Assembly: GCA_963662695.2 (NCBI GenBank)
Contig: CAXXDC010000002.1
Coordinates: forward strand, 650,022 to 714,021
Source of the DNA: Clostridia bacterium
Lineage (GTDB): Bacteria > Bacillota > Clostridia > SK-Y3
Direction: 5' to 3'
DNA length: 64,000 nt
The notes under the pieces were generated by a model. That model made no database searches. It was not told where the DNA came from and saw only the letters and a list, made by a program, of their open reading frames with translations. Of the stretch, positions 4,252-60,754 are shown piece after piece. The stretch's first letter is position 1. Each line of letters opens with the position of its first letter. A program made the position numbers and the translations under genes.

Positions 4252-6528
4252 TCAAAGTCTTATTTCTAAAACCTTATTCCTCGCTACGACTAAGTTCCTA
4301 AGGCTTTCTATTGTCTCTCGTTCCCCTCTTGTTTTCAATCCACAGTCAGGGTTAATCCACAATTTTTCACTTCTTACTTTCGTTAAGAGTTTTAAAGTAT
4401 TACTCACTAGTTCACTCACACTAGGAACTCTTGGTGAATGTATATCATAGATGCCTGGGCCAACCTCTGTTTGAAACTCTTCTTTTTCAATTGCTTCTAA
4501 TATATCCATACTTGATCTTGAAGCTTCAAAAGATATGACATCTGCATCCATAGCGTCGATATGTTGAATAATCTCATTAAACTCACTATAACACATATGG
4601 GTATGAATTTGCGTTTCTGGCTTCACTCCACTATGAACCAGTCTAAATGCTCTAATGGCCCAATCCAAATAGTCTCTCCCCCACTCTTCTCTTCGAAGTG
4701 GTAGTTTTTCTTTTAGGGCTGCTTCATCCACTTGAATAATTGACACACCATGCCTTTCTAAATCTAAAACTTCTTCTCGGATAGCCATGCCTATCTGATA
4801 TGCAATCTGTTCCAAGCTGATATCCTCTCTTGGAAAGGACCAATTTAAAATCGTTACAGGCCCTGTTAACATTCCTTTAACAGGTTTATTTGTCAATTGA
4901 TTTGCATAGAGTGTTTCCCTCAAAGTCATAGGTTCAACCCTTTTAATATCGTCACATATAATTGGTGGTTTAACACATCTTGTACCATAGGATTGTACCC
5001 ACGCCTTCTTAGTGAATATGAACCCTGCCAACTTTTCACCAAAAAATTCTACCATGTCACTCCTCTCAAACTCTCCATGTACAAGGACATCTAAATTCAG
5101 TTCTTCTTGCAGTTTGATACAGGATTCAATCTTGTTATCAATAAAAAGTTCGTACTCTGCCTTAGAGACTTTACCTTTTTTATATCTACTTCGCATCGTT
5201 CGTATCTCTTTTGTTTGAGGGAAAGAACCAATGGTTGTTGTAGGTAAAAGCGGTAGGTTTAATGTCTTTTTTTGAATATCACGTCTATCTTTAAAATTAG
5301 GCTTTCTAATAAAATCTTCCTCCATCAATAATTTCGCTAGATTGTCAGATTTCATTGCCCTTAATTCAGTCGCTTTTTTAAAATACTGTTGATTCAAAGC
5401 GAATTTTATATCTTTTTGAGGATCATCGCGTTTACATAGTTTCACAATATCTTGTAATTCAATTAGCTTCTCCTTAGCAAAAGCTAATAATGGATGGTTT
5501 TTTACTACATCATACTCATCTTCAACAGTATATGGTACATGTAATAATGAGCATGATGTATTTACAACTAAATATTCTTCTTGTATACTAGCTTTTAATT
5601 TTCGAATAATATTTATAGACTTTTCATATGAAGTTCTCCAGACATTTTTTCCATTTACAATACCTGCATATAGAAAAGTTTTTTCCGGGAAGCCATTTTT
5701 CTTGATAAGATGGCACGTTTCTTTTCCCTCAATAAAATCCAAACCAATCCCATCAAAGTCTAGAGCCATTATATTCTGATAACAATCTCGAATATCTCCA
5801 AAATAGGTTTGCAATTTTATCTTCAGTTTCCCTTTACTATTTAATAGTTTTCTATATGTATATTCAAATAGTTCAATATCCGATTTATTTAAATCCATCA
5901 CTAAAAAAGGTTCTTCTATTTGTATCCACGTAGCATCCAAATCAGATAGGTTTGCAATTACTTCTTTATAACATGCTATCAAGTCGTCAATAATATCTGT
6001 TTTTTCTATGCTATCTTTAAAATCAATTAAATTGATAAGGGTAAATGGTCCAATAATTGTTGGTGTAGTTTTTATACCAAGACGCTTAGCCTCCTTAAAA
6101 TGGCGAAAAATTTTGTCGTCATTGACTTTAAGTTTAGTATTTTCATCTACAACCGGAACAATATAGTGATAATTAGTATTGAACCATTTCTTCATAGCAA
6201 GAGCTTTAACGTCCCCTTTAATACCTTGATAACCTCTTGCCATAGCAAAGTAAGTATCTAAATTAGATAAACCTAGTTCAAGATATCTTTTTTCAATCAT
6301 ATTGAAAAGGAAAACAGTATCTAACACTTGATCATAATAGGAAAAATCATTAGAAGTTATATCATCAATACCAGCTCTTTGGATATCCTTCCATTGTTTT
6401 TCTCGTAGTTTTTTCGCACCCTCTTCTAATGCATACTCGTCAATCTCTTTTCGAAAATACTTTTCTATCAAAAATTTCAACTCTCTAGTTTCACCAATTC
6501 TTGGATAACCGATTATTCCACTTTTCAT
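4252..6528 (-). CDS. metE: Cobalamin-independent methionine synthase (5-methyltetrahydropteroyltriglutamate-homocysteine methyltransferase)
   Basis: 758 aa two-domain protein. It has the characteristic N-terminus GYPRIGETRELK and C-terminal segments HTHMCYSEF and INPDCGLKTR (zinc ligand region). Confidence 0.93.
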   Translation of the reverse strand: MKSGIIGYPRIGETRELKFLIEKYFRKEIDEYALEEGAKKLREKQWKDIQRAGIDDITSNDFSYYDQVLDTVFLFNMIEKRYLELGLSNLDTYFAMARGYQGIKGDVKALAMKKWFNTNYHYIVPVVDENTKLKVNDDKIFRHFKEAKRLGIKTTPTIIGPFTLINLIDFKDSIEKTDIIDDLIACYKEVIANLSDLDATWIQIEEPFLVMDLNKSDIELFEYTYRKLLNSKGKLKIKLQTYFGDIRDCYQNIMALDFDGIGLDFIEGKETCHLIKKNGFPEKTFLYAGIVNGKNVWRTSYEKSINIIRKLKASIQEEYLVVNTSCSLLHVPYTVEDEYDVVKNHPLLAFAKEKLIELQDIVKLCKRDDPQKDIKFALNQQYFKKATELRAMKSDNLAKLLMEEDFIRKPNFKDRRDIQKKTLNLPLLPTTTIGSFPQTKEIRTMRSRYKKGKVSKAEYELFIDNKIESCIKLQEELNLDVLVHGEFERSDMVEFFGEKLAGFIFTKKAWVQSYGTRCVKPPIICDDIKRVEPMTLRETLYANQLTNKPVKGMLTGPVTILNWSFPREDISLEQIAYQIGMAIREEVLDLERHGVSIIQVDEAALKEKLPLRREEWGRDYLDWAIRAFRLVHSGVKPETQIHTHMCYSEFNEIIQHIDAMDADVISFEASRSSMDILEAIEKEEFQTEVGPGIYDIHSPRVPSVSELVSNTLKLLTKVRSEKLWINPDCGLKTRGERETIESLRNLVVARNKVLEIRL

Positions 6529-53424: not shown

Positions 53425-55470
53425 CTACGAAATAATTGTACTGAGTTGTTTTTCTAAATCACTAGTAAGTATTATCTTTCCACAACTACTCATAGATTTA
53501 ATGAAAACTTCATGCTCATCTTCTAAAGGGTATATTGGTATTTTAATAGGAATCCATTGTAAATCTTTTTCTCCTGCAGCTATATCAATAGGTATGTGGC
53601 AATATCTGTGTGTTATAACTATCTCTTTTTCTTTTAAAACTAATTCAATCCATTCTTTAACATAGTCGGTTATTCCATATATCGATTCTCTACAAGCAGG
53701 TGTTTCAAAGAATTTCGACTTACTTCTATCTAAATTGAAACTAATACCTTCTGAATTCCCAGCTACATCTATATTAATATTATTAACCCAAAAGTTAATA
53801 TCCTCACTTCTATATTTTTTAAATTGAGTTAATTGATTAATTATAAGATGAGGCTTTTCATTTTCATCTGGCATAGTGAAAAAATCAGGTTGTAAAGAAA
53901 GAATTCCACCTGTCATTAAAAATTCTGCATCTTTCTTCATTGCTAATCTATATTTCACATCTGTCAACTCAGCATGAAAAACAATCAACTTTTCTACTTC
54001 TAATAGGAAGTCCGTTATTTTAAACGAATCAATTAATACTCCTTTATCATATATGCTAATTGTATTTGTAGTTTTATCTATTACTCTTCCGGGATGTGCA
54101 ATCGCATTTCTAATTTTTACATTATAGGCGTCGTTTATCATATCATGCAAATCTGTTTTTTTAGTATATCTCAAAGTCTTGCTAACTAAATTAGCTCCAT
54201 ATAGATCCGGTGTTATACACTCATCAATTATTGGTGCATTTTTTACTACTTTAGCTAAATTCGAAACAAACCAGTGATCTCCTATTAGATCAAAAGTATC
54301 TTTATACAAATTTATAATTGCATTAAAATCAGAATCATCAATTTCACTAACATCAAAAAAATCATCTGATTCTACAGAAGTAACTGGATTAGGATAATAA
54401 AAATCTTGAACCTGGGATTTTTTCTTGTTGAATATATTGTCATAAACAATTCCAATATCAGTTGTAGTTTGTAAGCTTTGTATTGTAGAAAAATTTTCAT
54501 CATATTCCAAAAACTCTTTAAATCGCACTTGATTACTCTCAGCAACAGAGATCACCTTTTCAAGATTTTCCATAATACTATAGTTTGCTTTTTGAAACCT
54601 CTCTTTATAAATACTACTTAAATATTCATAGAAAACACCTATTTCCAATTGATGATCTAGCTTAGAGCACTTTAATAGTTTTTCAATCATAGAATCAGGT
54701 GGAGTTTTTCCTTTATGCATATATTCATTAAAAAAGACTTTAAATTCAGTAAAAAGATCTATTAAAAGCGTATTCGAAAACGGGACATCTATAAGATTAT
54801 TATATTTAGATTTAGAACAAATTCTACAGTGCTTATCACTACAAAGTCTATTCGCAATTTCAAAAACATGATAGATTTCAATTTTCCCACACATTTCACA
54901 TTCAATAATTGCAAAATGCTTCTCACCATCACAAGCAAATTGTAAACTTACTTCTTGAGTTAAGTAACTAAATATATTTGTGTGTATATAAGGTTTAAGA
55001 CCCTCAGCAATTCTTCCCCTCAATCCTTCATTGATTTGCAAATATGACTTATTGTCTCCCTTAAATAAGATATGTCCTCTTGTCCAATTATTACTCTTGC
55101 TCTTACTAATATTTATTACACGGATTACTTTCACTAAACCTTCTTTTGTAATCGGATTAAGAATTTCTACAATTTCACCGCTAATTGTTACATCACGTAG
55201 AAATGGAGTTTGAAATATAATTACAGACTCCCTCTTATCTTCTAATTTTTTGAGGAAAATATTCAACCTCTCTTGACCAATAAATTGAGCAACCTGACTT
55301 TGCTCTATTTCAACTAATATTTCTTCGCTCTCACTATTATTTGGCAATACGAAATACATCGGGCTACTATAATATAATATCGATATATTAGTGTTCTGCA
55401 ACTCTATTTTCTGACCAACATTAGAGTGTTTTAAAACATACATTAAAAAATCATTTTCATCAAGGCTCAT
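53425..55470 (-). CDS. Large uncharacterised protein with a Cys4 zinc-ribbon and an RNxxxH (HEPN/Abi_C-like) motif
   Basis: CEMCGK...CSDKHCRICSK (residues about 198-225 of the track ORF) and KIRNAIAHPG (R461-H466; nt 54094-54111). The likely start is the ATG at 55470 after GGAAGGAG. The track ORF starts at 55491. Confidence 0.45.
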   Translation of the reverse strand: MSLDENDFLMYVLKHSNVGQKIELQNTNISILYYSSPMYFVLPNNSESEEILVEIEQSQVAQFIGQERLNIFLKKLEDKRESVIIFQTPFLRDVTISGEIVEILNPITKEGLVKVIRVINISKSKSNNWTRGHILFKGDNKSYLQINEGLRGRIAEGLKPYIHTNIFSYLTQEVSLQFACDGEKHFAIIECEMCGKIEIYHVFEIANRLCSDKHCRICSKSKYNNLIDVPFSNTLLIDLFTEFKVFFNEYMHKGKTPPDSMIEKLLKCSKLDHQLEIGVFYEYLSSIYKERFQKANYSIMENLEKVISVAESNQVRFKEFLEYDENFSTIQSLQTTTDIGIVYDNIFNKKKSQVQDFYYPNPVTSVESDDFFDVSEIDDSDFNAIINLYKDTFDLIGDHWFVSNLAKVVKNAPIIDECITPDLYGANLVSKTLRYTKKTDLHDMINDAYNVKIRNAIAHPGRVIDKTTNTISIYDKGVLIDSFKITDFLLEVEKLIVFHAELTDVKYRLAMKKDAEFLMTGGILSLQPDFFTMPDENEKPHLIINQLTQFKKYRSEDINFWVNNINIDVAGNSEGISFNLDRSKSKFFETPACRESIYGITDYVKEWIELVLKEKEIVITHRYCHIPIDIAAGEKDLQWIPIKIPIYPLEDEHEVFIKSMSSCGKIILTSDLEKQLSTIIS

Positions 55471-55606
55471 ATTTACAACTCCTTCCCCCATTTAGTTCAA
55501 TATCTTCAGATTACCCGAAAACATCTTTACCTTTAGTAAAATTTCACTTATTTCTTATAACACTATATACCACTTTATTCATAATTCAATATCTTGCAAT
55601 TTTCAA

Positions 55607-55636: not shown

Positions 55637-56485
55637 TCATAATGCATTAACCAGTTTTTCTGGATTAATATCATAATCACTTTCCTTCATTTCCTTAGCT
55701 AAGTCTCTTTTCCAAGCTCCATTTGAATCAATATTTATGTACACTACTCCAGATATATCATTAGGTTTTTCAACCTCTCCCTTGACCAAAGCACAAACAT
55801 TTCTCCGACCAATTTTTCCAATTAAATAACCGTGCTCAAAAATAACATTTTGTCTAGCTCTATCTTTTAACTCTGATTCTCTCTTCGCTTTACCTTCATC
55901 ACAAGGTGTATACAATACTACTGCAAAACCAACATTTGAGTTTTCTTCAATCTTCTCAATTATGGTCTGACCTTTACTTGCTTGTTCATGCAAGATGATA
56001 GCTTCAAAACCTAGTTTTTCTATAAATCTAGCGGTTTCCTGCTTAGCCTCATTATCGTGACCATGCACAATAAAAACTTTTGTTTTGTCCATTATACGTC
56101 CCCCTTCAATTCTTACAATCTCATCTTTTTCAATTACATATAAATTATTATCGCAAAGTACTGCTTTATCGTTTTTTATAACCTTAATTGCTAAAATATT
56201 CTTTCCTTCAATACTTATAAAACCATAATCTATTTCAGGCTTTATTGAAATCATTCCTAAAGCTCTATTTATTAAGCCATTTATATTAAATGTTGTACTT
56301 ATGTTCATCAGGTGATACTGCATATCTTCTTTAATTGCTCCAATAAGAATATGTCCATTCATAGTATTTGACATAGCAGCAATATATAACGCTAATCTAC
56401 TTGGTTTAAGTTCAAAACCAATACAGAATAAATTAGGATGACTATAATCTTTTAGCATTTCTCTTATTTCTTTTGAATTAATCAT
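55637..56485 (-). CDS. Fusion of an AlbA_2/Schlafen-like N-domain with a C-terminal TIR-like domain (Cap12/PycTIR-type, PF10137-like)
   Basis: C-terminus KVFIVHGHDNEAKQETARFIEKLGFEAIILHEQASKGQTIIEKIEENSNVGFAVVLYTPCDEG...RARQNVIFEHGYLIGKIGRRNVCALVKGEVEKPNDISGVVYI is the hallmark pattern of the prokaryotic TIR-like 'nucleotide-binding' domain. The AlbA_2-like call for the N-terminal approximately 130 aa is weaker. Confidence 0.7.
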   Translation of the reverse strand: MINSKEIREMLKDYSHPNLFCIGFELKPSRLALYIAAMSNTMNGHILIGAIKEDMQYHLMNISTTFNINGLINRALGMISIKPEIDYGFISIEGKNILAIKVIKNDKAVLCDNNLYVIEKDEIVRIEGGRIMDKTKVFIVHGHDNEAKQETARFIEKLGFEAIILHEQASKGQTIIEKIEENSNVGFAVVLYTPCDEGKAKRESELKDRARQNVIFEHGYLIGKIGRRNVCALVKGEVEKPNDISGVVYINIDSNGAWKRDLAKEMKESDYDINPEKLVNAL

Positions 56486-56493
56486 TTAGCCAC

Positions 56494-59400
56494 CTACCTT
56501 ATTCTTCTTAGAGGAATTCTGTTTATGCCCGTTAATTTAAGCATCTTACCAAAGGTTATCTTCTGGGGCGGATTATCATCATCTTCAACCCAAAGCTCCC
56601 AATCCTTTTCATAGTCCATAATATCCTTCTCCGATCCGTAATATAAAATAACTTGATTATAATCAGATGGACGGATAATTAAGTAAGTTTCTTCTCCATT
56701 CTTTTTGATTAGATATATCGTTTCATCAATCTTGAGAGCATCAACAAGATCATAACCTTGTTTTTTCTCTAGATGTTTAAATATCCTCTCTTTGGATCTC
56801 TTCAATATTGACATTACATATTCAAATTTAATGGAATCTTGTTCTGAAGAATGAATAAAATTTTCTGAAAAAAAGCTTGTACCCATTGCTTTTTGTAAAT
56901 CTTCATCAGTATAAATACCTGATTGTATCAATAATTCATCTGTTATTTCGGATTTATTTTGATTGTGATAACTTTCATTATGACCGCTTTGTAAAATCCG
57001 TTCTAAATCATCTTGATTTTCAATATTATATTTTTTCATAAGTTCATCATATGCTTCAGCTTTTTTCATGTTTATTGATATTTCTTCATCATCGTAAAGC
57101 CAATGAATATGTTTATAAATCTCTGGGAATATTTCCTTTGCTTTGTATGCGTTTTCGTCTATCCATTTATAGAGTCGTTTAAAAATCGTCTTTACTTCGC
57201 TATCTTTGTTTACTTTATTATTAATATTATTTTTCACATATGAACTGATTGGTGTTGCTAAATCTTTTGCATGTTTTTCTCTATTATCAGGTAAATTTAA
57301 TCTAATGGCTTTTTCAAGAAGTTCTTGCCTTATATCACGCCCAACATCCAAAGCTATATCTTTTAACGCTTTATCAATATCATCATCGAGAAACAAATCG
57401 TCTTTTATCACAAATTCACCATTTTGATTAGGAAGAATTGGGCAAGTAGTCTTATTCAATAAATTTTCCATATCATAAGTCACCAAAAAATCTACAAAGC
57501 TATCTAGCCATCCTAGCGCCTCATTTTTATCATTAAAGGTTAAGCTCGTAGCAAAATTCTTAAGATTTTCTGTTTCATTTATCTTACCTGCAATACATTT
57601 TGCTATATAGTTAATTGATTTTTGCAAAAGCTCATCTGAAATCGTATTTACACTCTTAATTGTAGTATATTTGTTGTCAAAAACTCTATTGGCTAATTCT
57701 ATAATTCTGATCTGTTTTTCATATGATTTGTTATCTTTATTCGTAAGCATTAATACTGCATCATATATTTCACCCTTTTGAATATCATCAGCTAACTTTA
57801 AGTTCTCTTCAATTTTTGCAATAATCGCTTCATTATTAATTAATCTCCACTCACTAATACCTTTAAATTCTATTGACTTATGAATCAAATAATCTTTGCA
57901 GTCATGCTCTAACAAGCTTAAAATCTCTTTATAATCATCTTCAATATTGTCATCTATGTAAAGATCCGAAATACTTTTCAGTTCTCTATTTTGATTTAAA
58001 ATGACTGCATATTTACCTCTGCATATATCGCTTATTAATTCACCCTCTAATTCGATTAAATCATAATATTCTTGCAACCATTGTATAGGTGATAACGATC
58101 CCTTTATATCATTAGCTAAATAGTTAAAGTTACCGACATCTTCAATTTCTTCTGTAAGCAACTCCAAGGTTAAGTTTCTACATTCTCCCCATAATGAACC
58201 ATACCAATTATGAATATCACTTTTAACTGGTATGCTGTGAGGAACCCATGAACTATATAGTGACCATATCTTATTTCTAATCTCTTCCTTGGGGTGGCTT
58301 GGCAATTTTATTAAAACCTCATCATTGAAATCTCTCAAAGCTACCCTCTCACCATCAACATTATCAACTAATGGAAGATACATTATTTGTTCTTTTGTTC
58401 TAGCTATAACATGCTCTTTTAACCACTTAGCACTAAACCAATCTTTCGATATAACTCTAGGGACTTTAGTAATATTATATAAGCCTTGCCAATCGTGAGA
58501 AGAATGCTCTAATATTTTATCATAGAGTGCACATCCCTCTTGCATTAATCGTTTGTTTTCAATCACTTTATCATCTTCACTATCAATCAACCATACTCCG
58601 TCCCTAGGTTCAGTTGGATTGAATTTAACACAATTCATTATGACGGGTATTGGAAATTCGTCTGTTCCAACTAAAGGAAAGTCACAAAATAGCTTGGGAA
58701 TCTTACTTGAATAAGGTTTGATTATAACTTTACCATTATCTTCATTAACAGGTACAGCTATTGAGATATTGGAGTCCTTCACTATTAGTATTTTGAATTC
58801 CTCTCTGAATCCATTTGATATCTGCTCAACATGATAAATATGAGAATTGCTTAATTGGCTTATCGTCCTATTTACCAATTTGTATTTAATGTTTTCATTT
58901 ACCAGTGTTATCTCTTCAATTTGAGGTGTAAATGCTAACACATAAGGAACTGAGCTTTTTAAATCTTCAAGTCCTATTTTCGCAACATTCATCCCCTTAT
59001 CATCCAGTTTATATGCGAATATAGTATTAAAATCTTCAGTATTATGTAATTGTTCATCAACGTTTATCTGATATTTCTCTAATTCATCATATGACTTCTT
59101 TATTGCATCAATAATTTCAGTTTTGTTCTTCCCTGATCTATCTAAAGTAATTTGAAACGCTTTCAAAATCAAGTCGTCATCTATAAGTTTTCCTCTAACC
59201 TGAACAATCTCAGATAATAGATGGGTCGTTAAAAATCCTGTACCAAACTTTCCAGTAGTATCGCTTTTCTCATCTCTATCTTTTGTAGAAACTTGCTCAA
59301 TCAAGAAAACAATGTTCTTTATCGAAAAAGGCTTCCCATTATGTCTAAACTCAAGTATCTTATCTTGCTCATTTAAGTATATTTCCACCTTTACCTTTCC

Positions 59401-59568
59401 ACTTCCATTTCGGACATCTTTAGCATTCTGTAAAAGTTCCCACACCCATCTTCTTTCACTATTTGTATTAGCATTAAGTCTAAGTTTATCTAACATATCC
59501 ATGATTCTATTGGCTACATTCGTATCATGTGCATTTTTTCTTTCTTCTTCTACTTTTGCTAGTAACAT
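56494..59568 (-). CDS. 1024-aa protein with N-terminal GHKL (HSP90/sacsin/MORC-like) ATPase fold
   Basis: Bergerat N-box WELLQNAKD (E44/N48/D51), RHNGKPF and the glycine lid GKFGTGF (residues 106-112). I could not assign the remaining approximately 850 aa. Confidence 0.6.
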   Translation of the reverse strand: MLLAKVEEERKNAHDTNVANRIMDMLDKLRLNANTNSERRWVWELLQNAKDVRNGSGKVKVEIYLNEQDKILEFRHNGKPFSIKNIVFLIEQVSTKDRDEKSDTTGKFGTGFLTTHLLSEIVQVRGKLIDDDLILKAFQITLDRSGKNKTEIIDAIKKSYDELEKYQINVDEQLHNTEDFNTIFAYKLDDKGMNVAKIGLEDLKSSVPYVLAFTPQIEEITLVNENIKYKLVNRTISQLSNSHIYHVEQISNGFREEFKILIVKDSNISIAVPVNEDNGKVIIKPYSSKIPKLFCDFPLVGTDEFPIPVIMNCVKFNPTEPRDGVWLIDSEDDKVIENKRLMQEGCALYDKILEHSSHDWQGLYNITKVPRVISKDWFSAKWLKEHVIARTKEQIMYLPLVDNVDGERVALRDFNDEVLIKLPSHPKEEIRNKIWSLYSSWVPHSIPVKSDIHNWYGSLWGECRNLTLELLTEEIEDVGNFNYLANDIKGSLSPIQWLQEYYDLIELEGELISDICRGKYAVILNQNRELKSISDLYIDDNIEDDYKEILSLLEHDCKDYLIHKSIEFKGISEWRLINNEAIIAKIEENLKLADDIQKGEIYDAVLMLTNKDNKSYEKQIRIIELANRVFDNKYTTIKSVNTISDELLQKSINYIAKCIAGKINETENLKNFATSLTFNDKNEALGWLDSFVDFLVTYDMENLLNKTTCPILPNQNGEFVIKDDLFLDDDIDKALKDIALDVGRDIRQELLEKAIRLNLPDNREKHAKDLATPISSYVKNNINNKVNKDSEVKTIFKRLYKWIDENAYKAKEIFPEIYKHIHWLYDDEEISINMKKAEAYDELMKKYNIENQDDLERILQSGHNESYHNQNKSEITDELLIQSGIYTDEDLQKAMGTSFFSENFIHSSEQDSIKFEYVMSILKRSKERIFKHLEKKQGYDLVDALKIDETIYLIKKNGEETYLIIRPSDYNQVILYYGSEKDIMDYEKDWELWVEDDDNPPQKITFGKMLKLTGINRIPLRRIR

Positions 59569-59926: not shown

Positions 59927-60754
59927 TTACATTTCCATGTCTTCCTCTTGCCCTTGAACATATTCTTCTGAAGGGTATTGTTGTTTCATTGCTTCATAGT
60001 GTTGTTTGTATATCTCTGCGTTCAAACGTTCTGGTGTTTGTGATTTTTCAGTTGTACTAACTTCACTAGATTCTTTATCAACACCTTTTTCATCAGGCTG
60101 ACTATGTTCCTTTTCATTAGCTATTTTTTTAAATAGATTTTTTTTTAATGATTCAATATTTTTTCTTGAAATCTCAACTTTCCCTTCTTCATAAACCTTT
60201 CTAATACCCTCAATTTCTTTAGCTCCTCTAACCCTTCCGTTTTCTTGTTTAATGCATTTATTGAGTAAATCTATTGGTAATTCATTTTCCAGACCAATAC
60301 GTACCTCCCTCATTTGCTGAGGTGTGAGATACGACTGATTAATCAAGAACTCCACTTGCTTCTTATTTAAGCCACATTCGAAACCTTTTCGTATCTCCTG
60401 CATCTGTTCAGGTAAGAGCGTTGGCTTGGCATACATTTCCACTTGAGCATTGCTAAGATTCCCTTCAAGCCCAAGGCGGACATCCTTCATTTGATTATAG
60501 GTAAGAGTTGGTTTATTCGCATATAGGGCTACCTGTAATTTACTTAATCCATTTTCCATACCCATTCTAATCTCTCTCATTTGTTTATCATTTAATATAT
60601 CATGGGCATACATCTTTATTTGTGATACTGCTAGACCTGCTCTTAAACCTTCCATCACTTCATTAAATTGCATTCTATTTAGATCATCACATTCTAGTTG
60701 TTTTAAGCTCTGACGGTATTTTATTTTCTCAAAGAAATCTCTAATTACTCCCAT
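59927..60754 (-). CDS. Protein with five tandem approximately 32-36 aa repeats (QM+E[IV]R.G.E.GL...Q[VI]..YA)
   Basis: Repeats are seen directly: QFNEVMEGLRAGLAVSQIKMYA / QMREIRMGMENGLSKLQVALYA / QMKDVRLGLEGNLSNAQVEMYA / QMQEIRKGFECGLNKKQVEFL / QMREVRIGLENELPIDLL. The C-terminus is acidic and low-complexity. Confidence 0.5.
   Translation of the reverse strand: MGVIRDFFEKIKYRQSLKQLECDDLNRMQFNEVMEGLRAGLAVSQIKMYAHDILNDKQMREIRMGMENGLSKLQVALYANKPTLTYNQMKDVRLGLEGNLSNAQVEMYAKPTLLPEQMQEIRKGFECGLNKKQVEFLINQSYLTPQQMREVRIGLENELPIDLLNKCIKQENGRVRGAKEIEGIRKVYEEGKVEISRKNIESLKKNLFKKIANEKEHSQPDEKGVDKESSEVSTTEKSQTPERLNAEIYKQHYEAMKQQYPSEEYVQGQEEDMEM

Follow-up and report, generated by a model that had tools for sequence, protein, structure and literature searches.

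A probable two-gene operon within a conjugative element

The 64,000-nt stretch of Clostridia bacterium DNA analysed here (assembly GCA_963662695.2, contig CAXXDC010000002.1, positions 650,022 to 714,021; hereafter the window) carries, inside a conjugative element, a pair of adjacent minus-strand genes whose products we describe as a candidate phage-defence module: an ATPase related to the Tiamat protein TmtA, and a smaller protein that joins an AlbA_2/Schlafen-type module to a TIR domain of the Cap12/Pycsar type. The gene of the latter (55637..56485, minus strand) starts with ATG and encodes 282 aa, an assignment based on the open reading frame (ORF), on domain profiles and on AlphaFold2 and Foldseek results; a plus-strand reading of the same interval was rejected, as its translation is riddled with stops. 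Directly upstream lies the ATPase gene (56494..59568, minus strand; 1024 aa), which PADLOC, NCBIfam and conserved linkage identify as encoding a TmtA-like, GHKL/sacsin-type ATPase and as the first gene of a two-gene operon. Read directly from the sequence, the ATPase gene stops with TAG at 56496-56494 and the TIR gene begins with its ATG at 56485-56483, leaving an intergenic spacer of exactly 8 nt, GTGGCTAA (56486..56493, minus strand). An earlier interpretation of this DNA from its letters alone (the sequence-only reading) had given this spacing exactly and had described both domains and a GHKL ATPase as the partner; it missed the minus strand and the Tiamat-like identity of that partner.

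A Shine-Dalgarno-like AGGTGG overlaps the TAG stop codon of the ATPase gene, and translational coupling of the two genes is therefore likely. In a scan for promoters and terminators, no terminator-like site was found between them, which is consistent with an operon, and promoter-like sites were no commoner than in shuffled sequence (37 vs 39.3).

A Cap12-type TIR domain with a complete catalytic set

The C-terminal half of the 282-aa protein is a TIR domain of family PF10137 (CAP12-PCTIR_TIR; residues 136-253; 55727..56080, minus strand), recognised by Pfam, PADLOC and Foldseek and predicted to act as a nicotinamide adenine dinucleotide (NAD+) glycohydrolase effector. The Pfam match is strong (E=1.4e-41; 141.6 bits vs a cut-off of 24.7) and spans profile positions 1-118 of 119. 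An AlphaFold2 model of the whole protein, built on an alignment of 38 full-length relatives (A1), has two domains and a mean predicted local distance difference test score (pLDDT) of 85.4. Against the PDB, Foldseek places the C-terminal domain with TIR-STING/Cap12 structures (9lmq, E=4e-7; 7un8, E=5e-6, with a root-mean-square deviation of 2.8 Å over 137 columns), followed by the TIR-APAZ protein of SPARTA (8qlp, 8z92), SARM1 and MyD88. The family profile also matches Cap12 chains by sequence.

The predicted catalytic glutamate is E217 (codon 55835..55837, minus strand), which stands in the motif R211-Q-N213-V-I-F-E217-H. A phmmer alignment of the C-terminal domain with SfSTING puts R211-Q-N213-V-I-F-E217 on R78-D-N80-V-V-F-E84 and D243 on D110, and E217, R211, N213 and D243 are invariant in 38/38 relatives. 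In SfSTING, E84 on helix alpha-C is catalytic, R78 and N80 hold the phosphodiester and ribose of NAD+, and D110 reaches across the dimer to complete the active site of the other TIR molecule (PMC9402430). Because the catalytic set is complete, and in view of how characterised PF10137 members behave, NADase chemistry is likely for this domain. The sequence-only reading had assigned the C-terminal domain to the Cap12/Pycsar type of TIR and had counted its conserved glutamate as E217; both the assignment and the numbering hold, and the residue falls where a catalytic glutamate should be.

A degenerate AlbA_2 module at the N-terminus

Residues 1-128 (56102..56485, minus strand) form an AlbA_2/Schlafen-type module, assigned by Pfam, a family profile and Foldseek, for which we propose a role as adaptor or sensor to the ATPase. 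The match to PF04326 (SLFN_AlbA_2) at residues 30-112 lies just over the cut-off (E=3e-6; 28.2 bits vs 25.3), relatives of the module reach 65 bits with the same family, and the family profile finds SLFN13, SLFN14 and SLFN12 among PDB sequences at E=2e-5 to 1e-3. Foldseek matches of the N-terminal domain are DIP2311 (3lmm), the N-domain of SLFN13 (5yd0), a RecG-related N-domain (2kyy) and the DNA-binding domain of SAMD9 (7ksp). Each half of the protein, searched separately as a predicted structure, thus has the fold that had been claimed for it beforehand.

The active-site motif of Schlafen nucleases is Ex4(E/D)xK (PMC13056530). At the corresponding positions the window protein has F20...E25-L-K27, and the motif is not kept among the 38 relatives (Glu20 in 0/38, Glu or Asp at position 25 in 20/38, Lys27 in 20/38). 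Since the motif is not conserved and the protein has a single AlbA_2 lobe of ~125 aa, the N-terminal domain is unlikely to act as a nuclease; nucleic-acid binding by it is possible. The opposite division of labour, in which AlbA_2 would itself be the effector, a Schlafen-type tRNA or RNA nuclease, and the TIR domain would serve only for oligomerisation or regulation, draws on the bacterial precedent of Schlafen domains that act as anti-phage tRNases and are joined to a variety of sensors (PMC13056530) and on the match of the family profile to the nuclease domains of SLFN13 and SLFN14. Against it stand the degenerate motif and single lobe, set beside TIR catalytic residues that are all invariant, and we consider it very improbable, also in light of the effector variety described below.

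A Tiamat-like ATPase as the partner

The 1024-aa ATPase matches the PADLOC model of TmtA (Tiamat; PDLC03967) over residues 5-643 (E=4.1e-147). Its GHKL (Bergerat) ATP-binding region (residues 39-124; 59197..59454, minus strand) is defined by the NCBIfam sacsin ATP-binding domain NF047352 (E=4e-20); the Pfam HATPase_c match is weak. Invariant in 34 relatives are E44 and N48 of its N-box, ELLQNAKD, and the whole of its glycine box, GKFGTGF (G106-F112).

At the other end of the protein, conservation and an AlphaFold2 model delimit what we call the 'RPSD' domain (residues ~904-1024; 56497..56859, minus strand), with the invariant residues K956, R966-P-S-D969, Y976, Y977, E980, D982 and W993. The model of residues 840-1024 (pLDDT 70, near 90 in the core) has an alpha-beta-beta-beta-alpha-beta core; its Foldseek matches are weak (E 0.02-0.3) and mostly PD-(D/E)xK proteins, among them Hjc, RecU and a splicing endonuclease. 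The domain is thus weakly PD-(D/E)xK-like in fold and is without the canonical catalytic motif.

The Tiamat-like family and a fused form of it are the subject of an October 2026 preprint (Yuan et al., bioRxiv 10.64898/2026.09.30.754977), whose strict definition of Tiamat combines an Hsp90/GHKL-type ATPase that keeps its ATP-binding motifs with a C-terminal NOV_C/DUF3883 nuclease of the PD-(D/E)xK type that retains its catalytic residues. The first part is present in the window protein, and no NOV_C/DUF3883 nuclease was found at its C-terminus: a Pfam search relaxed to E<=10 left the last 385 residues without a match, and a six-frame search found no NOV_C in the genome. That the 'RPSD' domain might be a degenerate NOV_C/DUF3883 nuclease was considered and rejected, as hhalign against the NOV_C alignment gave a probability of 0.2%. 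A likeness seen by eye between EYDL...LIxRPSD and GYDI...IEVK was likewise dropped, there being no PDB sequence match and the Asp of 'YDL' being Asn or Lys in some members. Under the definition of Yuan et al. the ATPase is, as judged from its domain content, Tiamat-like and not a canonical Tiamat.

A search for canonical Tiamat in a phylum sample by way of NOV_C recovered ~1120-aa proteins that are SNF2-type helicases with NOV_C and not Tiamat. NOV_C (PF13020) occurs in 54/401 sampled phylum genomes (loci L093-L132); ten full-length NOV_C ORFs (~1110-1250 aa) are without a GHKL ATP-binding motif, and the one that was aligned (L123) has SNF2-type helicase motifs.

Strict linkage and co-evolution of the two genes

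A scan of one genome per species yielded 80 loci with PF10137, and the linkage counts refer to a sample of 18 loci with usable upstream sequence. In all nine loci with full-length relatives of the 282-aa protein (L001-L009), a TmtA-like gene (31-52% identity) ends directly before the TIR gene. Adding one further locus (L088), the ATPase gene lies directly upstream in 10/10 loci found to encode an AlbA_2 + PF10137 protein. Conversely, a TmtA-like gene precedes the PF10137 gene in 0/71 loci with other N-domains (L010-L080), where the PF10137 domains are 55-72% identical to that of the window and the N-domains unrelated to it. Among the PF10137 sample, at least nine clusters of N-domain similarity can be told apart, three of them singletons, and the AlbA_2 cluster alone is linked to TmtA. 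The 71 loci span Bacteroidota, Pseudomonadota, Bacillota and Cyanobacteria and present an unusually conserved effector cassette with shuffled N-domains of ~110-140 aa, the PDC-S35 family.

Seen from the ATPase, the picture is the same. The C-terminal half of the protein has 314 relatives, mostly of ~1020-1035 aa, and NOV_C is annotated in none of the 120 relatives listed. A gene for an AlbA_2-X protein, X being the C-terminal domain, lies directly downstream, at 0-8 nt, in 7/7 sampled ATPase relatives, the gap in relatives as a whole being -4 to +16 nt, and separate AlbA_2-X genes also follow a TmtA-like gene in two further loci (L133, with a caspase domain, and L134, with bSEFIR). At least 29 'longest contig' values are common to the homologue lists of the TIR protein and the ATPase, the tables having been compared by hand. 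Finally, the ATPase and the AlbA_2 module give maximum-likelihood trees with matching clades, in which every effector type is monophyletic.

These data bear on one alternative, namely that a stand-alone Tiamat and a stand-alone TIR protein of the PDC-S35 type, two independent single-gene systems, have become neighbours by chance in a defence island. Such a view would accord with PADLOC, which treats TmtA and PDC-S35 as separate single-gene systems, with the description of Tiamat as stand-alone, and with the thousands of PF10137 proteins of similar size that have no TmtA neighbour. It is at odds with an ATPase gene upstream (gap <=16 nt) of every AlbA_2 + PF10137 locus found and an AlbA_2-X gene downstream of every sampled ATPase relative, with the congruent trees, with the existence of fused single-chain versions, and with PDC-S35 models that cover the TIR half only (PADLOC, E=2.6e-86, residues 126-278). 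Because of the linkage and fusion data, we regard two independent systems as essentially excluded by the comparative evidence. Judged by gene order, the ATPase is the obligate partner of the AlbA_2 + PF10137 protein; the architecture and the coupling to the ATPase are close to certain, and physical contact between the AlbA_2 module and the ATPase is the most likely form that this coupling takes. Of the two routes of activation that the sequence-only reading had left side by side, the one through the ATPase partner is strongly supported by the strict gene linkage, the congruent trees and the fused relatives.

Exchangeable effectors and fused relatives

The identity of X differs from relative to relative. 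In the seven sampled ATPase relatives it is PF10137 once (L088), TIR_2 four times (L084, L086, L090, L092) and the C-terminal domain of a 297-aa form twice (L083, L089). For the C-terminal domain of the 297-aa form (GEVDILIKEK...LIEALN), Pfam gives no family and PADLOC only a weak match, to the C-terminal region of LmuA (E=3e-4); the domain may be a nuclease variant of the effector. The 297-aa AlbA_2 proteins are encoded behind TmtA-like genes at L083:7066-7959 and L089:3609-4502. In the latter locus, the TmtA-like/AlbA_2-X pair is directly followed (4574-6091) by a gene for a 505-aa protein with AlbA_2 and HATPase_c_4, the common prokaryotic architecture of Schlafen plus histidine-kinase-like domain; two different AlbA_2 systems thus stand side by side there.

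A profile of the AlbA_2 module (A5), run against 1.84 billion representative proteins, returned 1087 matches. Many are proteins of 270-420 aa in which the module is N-terminal and the C-terminal domain is TIR_2, bSEFIR, caspase C14 or unknown; several others are ~1650 aa long and carry the module at residues ~1270-1400. One of these long proteins (P0277, 1679 aa) matches PADLOC TmtA (E=4e-120), aligns with residues 16-1021 of the window ATPase and continues with AlbA_2 at 1286-1403 and then a caspase; another (P0285, 1656 aa) likewise has a TmtA match (E=3e-241) followed by AlbA_2 and a caspase domain, and its residues 1141-1260 are 44% identical to the window 'RPSD' domain. The 'RPSD' domain therefore directly precedes the AlbA_2 module in split and fused relatives alike.

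Because X varies among PF10137, TIR_2, bSEFIR, caspase C14 and an LmuA-like, nuclease-like domain, AlbA_2 is, on comparative grounds, the constant coupling or sensing module and the TIR domain an exchangeable terminal effector. The sequence-only reading had recognised both parts of the AlbA_2-TIR fusion and had missed that one of them is constant and the other interchangeable. That the domain joined to AlbA_2 varies among known killer domains (TIR, caspase, nuclease) fits an adaptor and argues further against AlbA_2 as the effector, as does the observation of Yuan et al. that the Schlafen-like domain of fused Tiamat-like proteins is without catalytic residues. Both window proteins can be aligned with each of the fused proteins P0277 and P0285, and the pair is, by this alignment, a split form of the Type V-A architecture of Yuan et al. 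in which the peptidase has been exchanged for a Cap12-type TIR domain.

Genomic setting and neighbouring genes

The conjugative element that surrounds the pair has genes for a relaxase, MobC/NikA, a coupling protein and TrbL on one side, and for a DUF3991-Toprim primase, RadC and a helicase on the other. The ATPase occurs in 1/401 sampled phylum genomes, which is the window's own genome; this genome has no other PF10137 gene, and the full-length 282-aa protein has no PLSDB plasmid record. Elsewhere, the pair adjoins genes for type I restriction-modification, a STAND nucleoside triphosphatase (NTPase), Fic and a serine recombinase. This rare and patchy spread, in mobile-element and defence settings, is in keeping with a defence module.

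The same setting could be read differently, with the pair serving the conjugative element instead of host immunity, for example through addiction, exclusion or competition with rival mobile elements. Its position, flanked by leading-region genes (primase, RadC, helicase) on one side and by the MobC/relaxase genes on the other, would suit such a role, and one other locus adjoins serine recombinases. Other loci have restriction-modification, STAND NTPase and Fic genes beside the pair, and none of the genes called there belongs to conjugation; the pair is therefore better described as portable cargo than as a component of conjugation. Service to the element, which overlaps mechanistically with host defence and differs from it in the target alone, is in our view improbable as the main role.

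Two neighbouring ORFs belong to the description of the locus. Downstream of the TIR gene by 145 nt lies an ORF of 688 aa (53425-55491, minus strand) with no significant Pfam, PADLOC or NCBIfam family. It was considered as a third component and rejected, as tblastn found no homologue in any related locus and no Pfam or PADLOC family matched; it may belong to the element as cargo, or as a defence gene, in its own right. An ORF of 275 aa (59927-60754, minus strand), placed between the primase-like gene and that of the ATPase, has no Pfam family and no homologue in the related loci.

A proposed mechanism and its standing

We put at about 70% the probability that the pair is a two-gene, Tiamat-like defence module which an integrative conjugative element carries as cargo, with the 282-aa protein as its effector subunit. 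From the domains and the company they keep we infer that the pair acts in defence; as cited by Yuan et al., the Tiamat of B. cereus protects against phages T5 and T6. The ATPase/AlbA_2 assembly would be the sensing and transducing part and would respond to infection or to incoming foreign DNA, with foreign DNA, single-stranded DNA (ssDNA) or a phage protein as candidate triggers. In such an assembly, the AlbA_2 module would carry on from the 'RPSD' domain of the ATPase as it does in the fused relatives, and it could also bind a nucleic-acid cue. The TIR domains would then be brought into dimers or filaments, where, as happens in TIR-STING, each active site with its E217 would receive D243 from the adjacent molecule. 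Since an active site assembled in this way depends on a second molecule, induced TIR-TIR packing would be needed, and activation presumably proceeds by oligomerisation. Hydrolysis of NAD+ would leave the infected cell no longer able to support the invader.

A cyclic nucleotide would have no part in this activation. The sequence-only reading had argued against second-messenger control, and this is supported by the protein, which has no cyclic-nucleotide sensor, by the genome, in which no SMODS CD-NTase was found, and by the Cap12 equivalog models, which score far under their cut-off.

Several points weigh against this assignment. The orientation of the two domains in the AlphaFold2 model of the 282-aa protein is uncertain (predicted template modelling score 0.55). 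DNPH1 is among the fold matches of the TIR domain, and enzymes of the TIR fold are also capable of producing signalling molecules or of acting on nucleotides. Because its 'RPSD' domain is weakly PD-(D/E)xK-like in fold and has invariant acidic and basic residues, the ATPase might have a nuclease activity of its own and would then share the effector role with the TIR domain. In two of the nine loci (L001 and L008) the ATPase gene is split, and in a third (L009) a contig end cuts it. Canonical Tiamat is classed as a stand-alone protein in the preprint (bioRxiv 10.64898/2026.09.30.754977), and PDC-S35 is a candidate system only. The split ATPase ORFs themselves measure 363+672 aa (L001, 5006-8116) and 321+498 aa (L008, 6548-8990), with the AlbA_2-TIR gene intact in both loci; the splits may reflect a frameshift, decay, or a sequencing or assembly error.

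The first of these concerns about chemistry can be extended into an alternative in which the TIR domain is no NAD+-depleting killer at all: it would make a signal nucleotide, as in Thoeris, or process nucleotides or nucleic acids, and the damage would be done by the nuclease-like C-terminal domain of the ATPase or by an unlinked effector. Bacterial TIR domains can indeed generate signals, Foldseek lists other nucleotide-processing folds beside DNPH1, the ATPase C-terminal domain has a weakly PD-(D/E)xK-like fold and invariant charged residues, and the Tiamat of B. cereus cleaves ssDNA (bioRxiv 10.64898/2026.09.30.754977). On the other side, no conserved third gene is present, the 688-aa gene being missing from all related loci; the caspase and nuclease-like domains that replace the TIR domain in relatives are terminal effectors and not signal generators; and the characterised PF10137 members, TIR-STING and PycTIR, deplete NAD+, with the residues of the NAD site, including the cross-dimer Asp, kept here. 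We therefore think a signalling or nucleotide-processing TIR domain unlikely, with a small but real chance of being correct, and continue with the TIR domain as an NAD+-hydrolysing effector.

A bolder proposal, to which we give an even chance, is that AlbA_2 is a dedicated plug by which a Tiamat-like GHKL sensor is connected, in cis or in trans, to interchangeable suicide effectors, and that the pair is the first TIR NADase switched by an ATP-driven GHKL machine, possibly on DNA. If true, this switch would set the pair apart from TIR NADases controlled by a STAND NTPase, an Argonaute or a small-molecule signal, the Tiamat/sacsin/NO VEIN family would gain a new branch with multiple effectors, and one subgroup of 'orphan' TIR proteins of PDC-S35 would be accounted for.

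More generally, the locus joins two catalogue entries: Tiamat, listed as a single-protein system and only now under mechanistic study, and single-gene PF10137 candidates with N-domains of no known family. One branch of Tiamat-like ATPases appears to have given the killing function to a separate, AlbA_2-tagged protein, with the killing domain freely exchanged. Tools of the PADLOC type currently call this operon as two unrelated systems. As a tractable two-protein system for signalling by GHKL/sacsin-type ATPases, the pair bears on the eukaryotic proteins NO VEIN and sacsin, and it offers a route both to the role of a catalytically degenerate Schlafen/AlbA_2 domain in immunity and to the activation of Cap12-type TIR domains in the absence of a cyclic nucleotide.

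Comparison with known systems

The closest relatives of the TIR domain are found in Cap12 (TIR-STING, SfSTING, PDB 7UN8) of the cyclic-oligonucleotide-based antiphage signalling system (CBASS) and in PycTIR of Pycsar, with which the window protein shares the PF10137 subfamily, the residues of the NAD site and the best structural matches. It differs from them in having no STING, SAVED or cyclic-mononucleotide-binding sensor, in standing in an operon without a CD-NTase or cyclase, and in the position of the TIR domain, C-terminal to an AlbA_2 module. The NCBIfam equivalog models of Cap12 score ~35 bits on the protein vs a cut-off of 450, and PADLOC PycTIR matches the TIR part alone (E=2.9e-5). 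Where a CBASS or Pycsar system would combine a cyclic-nucleotide sensor with a CD-NTase or pyrimidine cyclase in its operon, the neighbours here are a GHKL ATPase and conjugation genes.

With PDC-S35 (Payne et al., bioRxiv 10.1101/2024.01.29.577857) the protein has in common a highly conserved PF10137 domain, a length of ~280 aa and a variable N-domain of ~125 aa. It differs in that the PDC-S35 models have no full-length match here, the AlbA_2 N-domain forms a separate cluster, and the gene always lies behind a TmtA-like gene; since the AlbA_2 cluster alone is linked to TmtA, the window member is not a single-gene PDC-S35 system.

In SPARTA, the short prokaryotic Argonaute system with TIR-APAZ and Ago, a TIR NADase is likewise inactive until a nucleic-acid-sensing partner drives oligomerisation of the TIR domains, a principle that is only proposed for the window pair. 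SPARTA differs in its TIR subfamily, has an Argonaute as the partner in place of a GHKL ATPase, and is without an AlbA_2 module. The bacterial Schlafen defence proteins (Perez Taboada et al. 2026, PMC13056530) and SAMD9, whose AlbA_2 domain binds DNA, share the AlbA_2/Schlafen fold and the immune context. In the bacterial Schlafen proteins, however, the Schlafen domain is the tRNase effector and has the Ex4(E/D)xK motif, whereas in the window protein this motif is degenerate and the effectors are interchangeable.

In the literature, we found no description of a split AlbA_2-TIR partner, and a systematic preprint on TIR systems is without AlbA, GHKL or Tiamat. The term 'TIR' occurs 0 times in the text of Yuan et al., which leaves the split form unmentioned as well. 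The pair thus appears to be a variant of the Tiamat-like phage-defence family that consists of two genes and has not been described before.

Within this family, the likeness to canonical Tiamat (TmtA; Millman et al. 2022, as cited by Yuan et al.) lies in a homologous GHKL ATPase and central region and in a rare occurrence tied to defence islands and mobile elements. Canonical Tiamat is stand-alone and ends in a NOV_C nuclease of the PD-(D/E)xK type, whereas the window ATPase has no detectable NOV_C and has an obligate downstream partner. Closest of all is the Type V-A Tiamat-like form, which Yuan et al. (bioRxiv 10.64898/2026.09.30.754977) describe as having a Schlafen-like domain without catalytic residues and a peptidase. 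A GHKL/sacsin ATPase core, the 'RPSD' domain, a Schlafen-like AlbA_2 module without nuclease residues and an effector follow one another in identical order in Type V-A and in the window; the differences are that the window pair distributes these modules over two genes, 8 nt apart, with the break after the 'RPSD' domain, and that its effector is a PF10137 TIR domain in place of a caspase-like peptidase.

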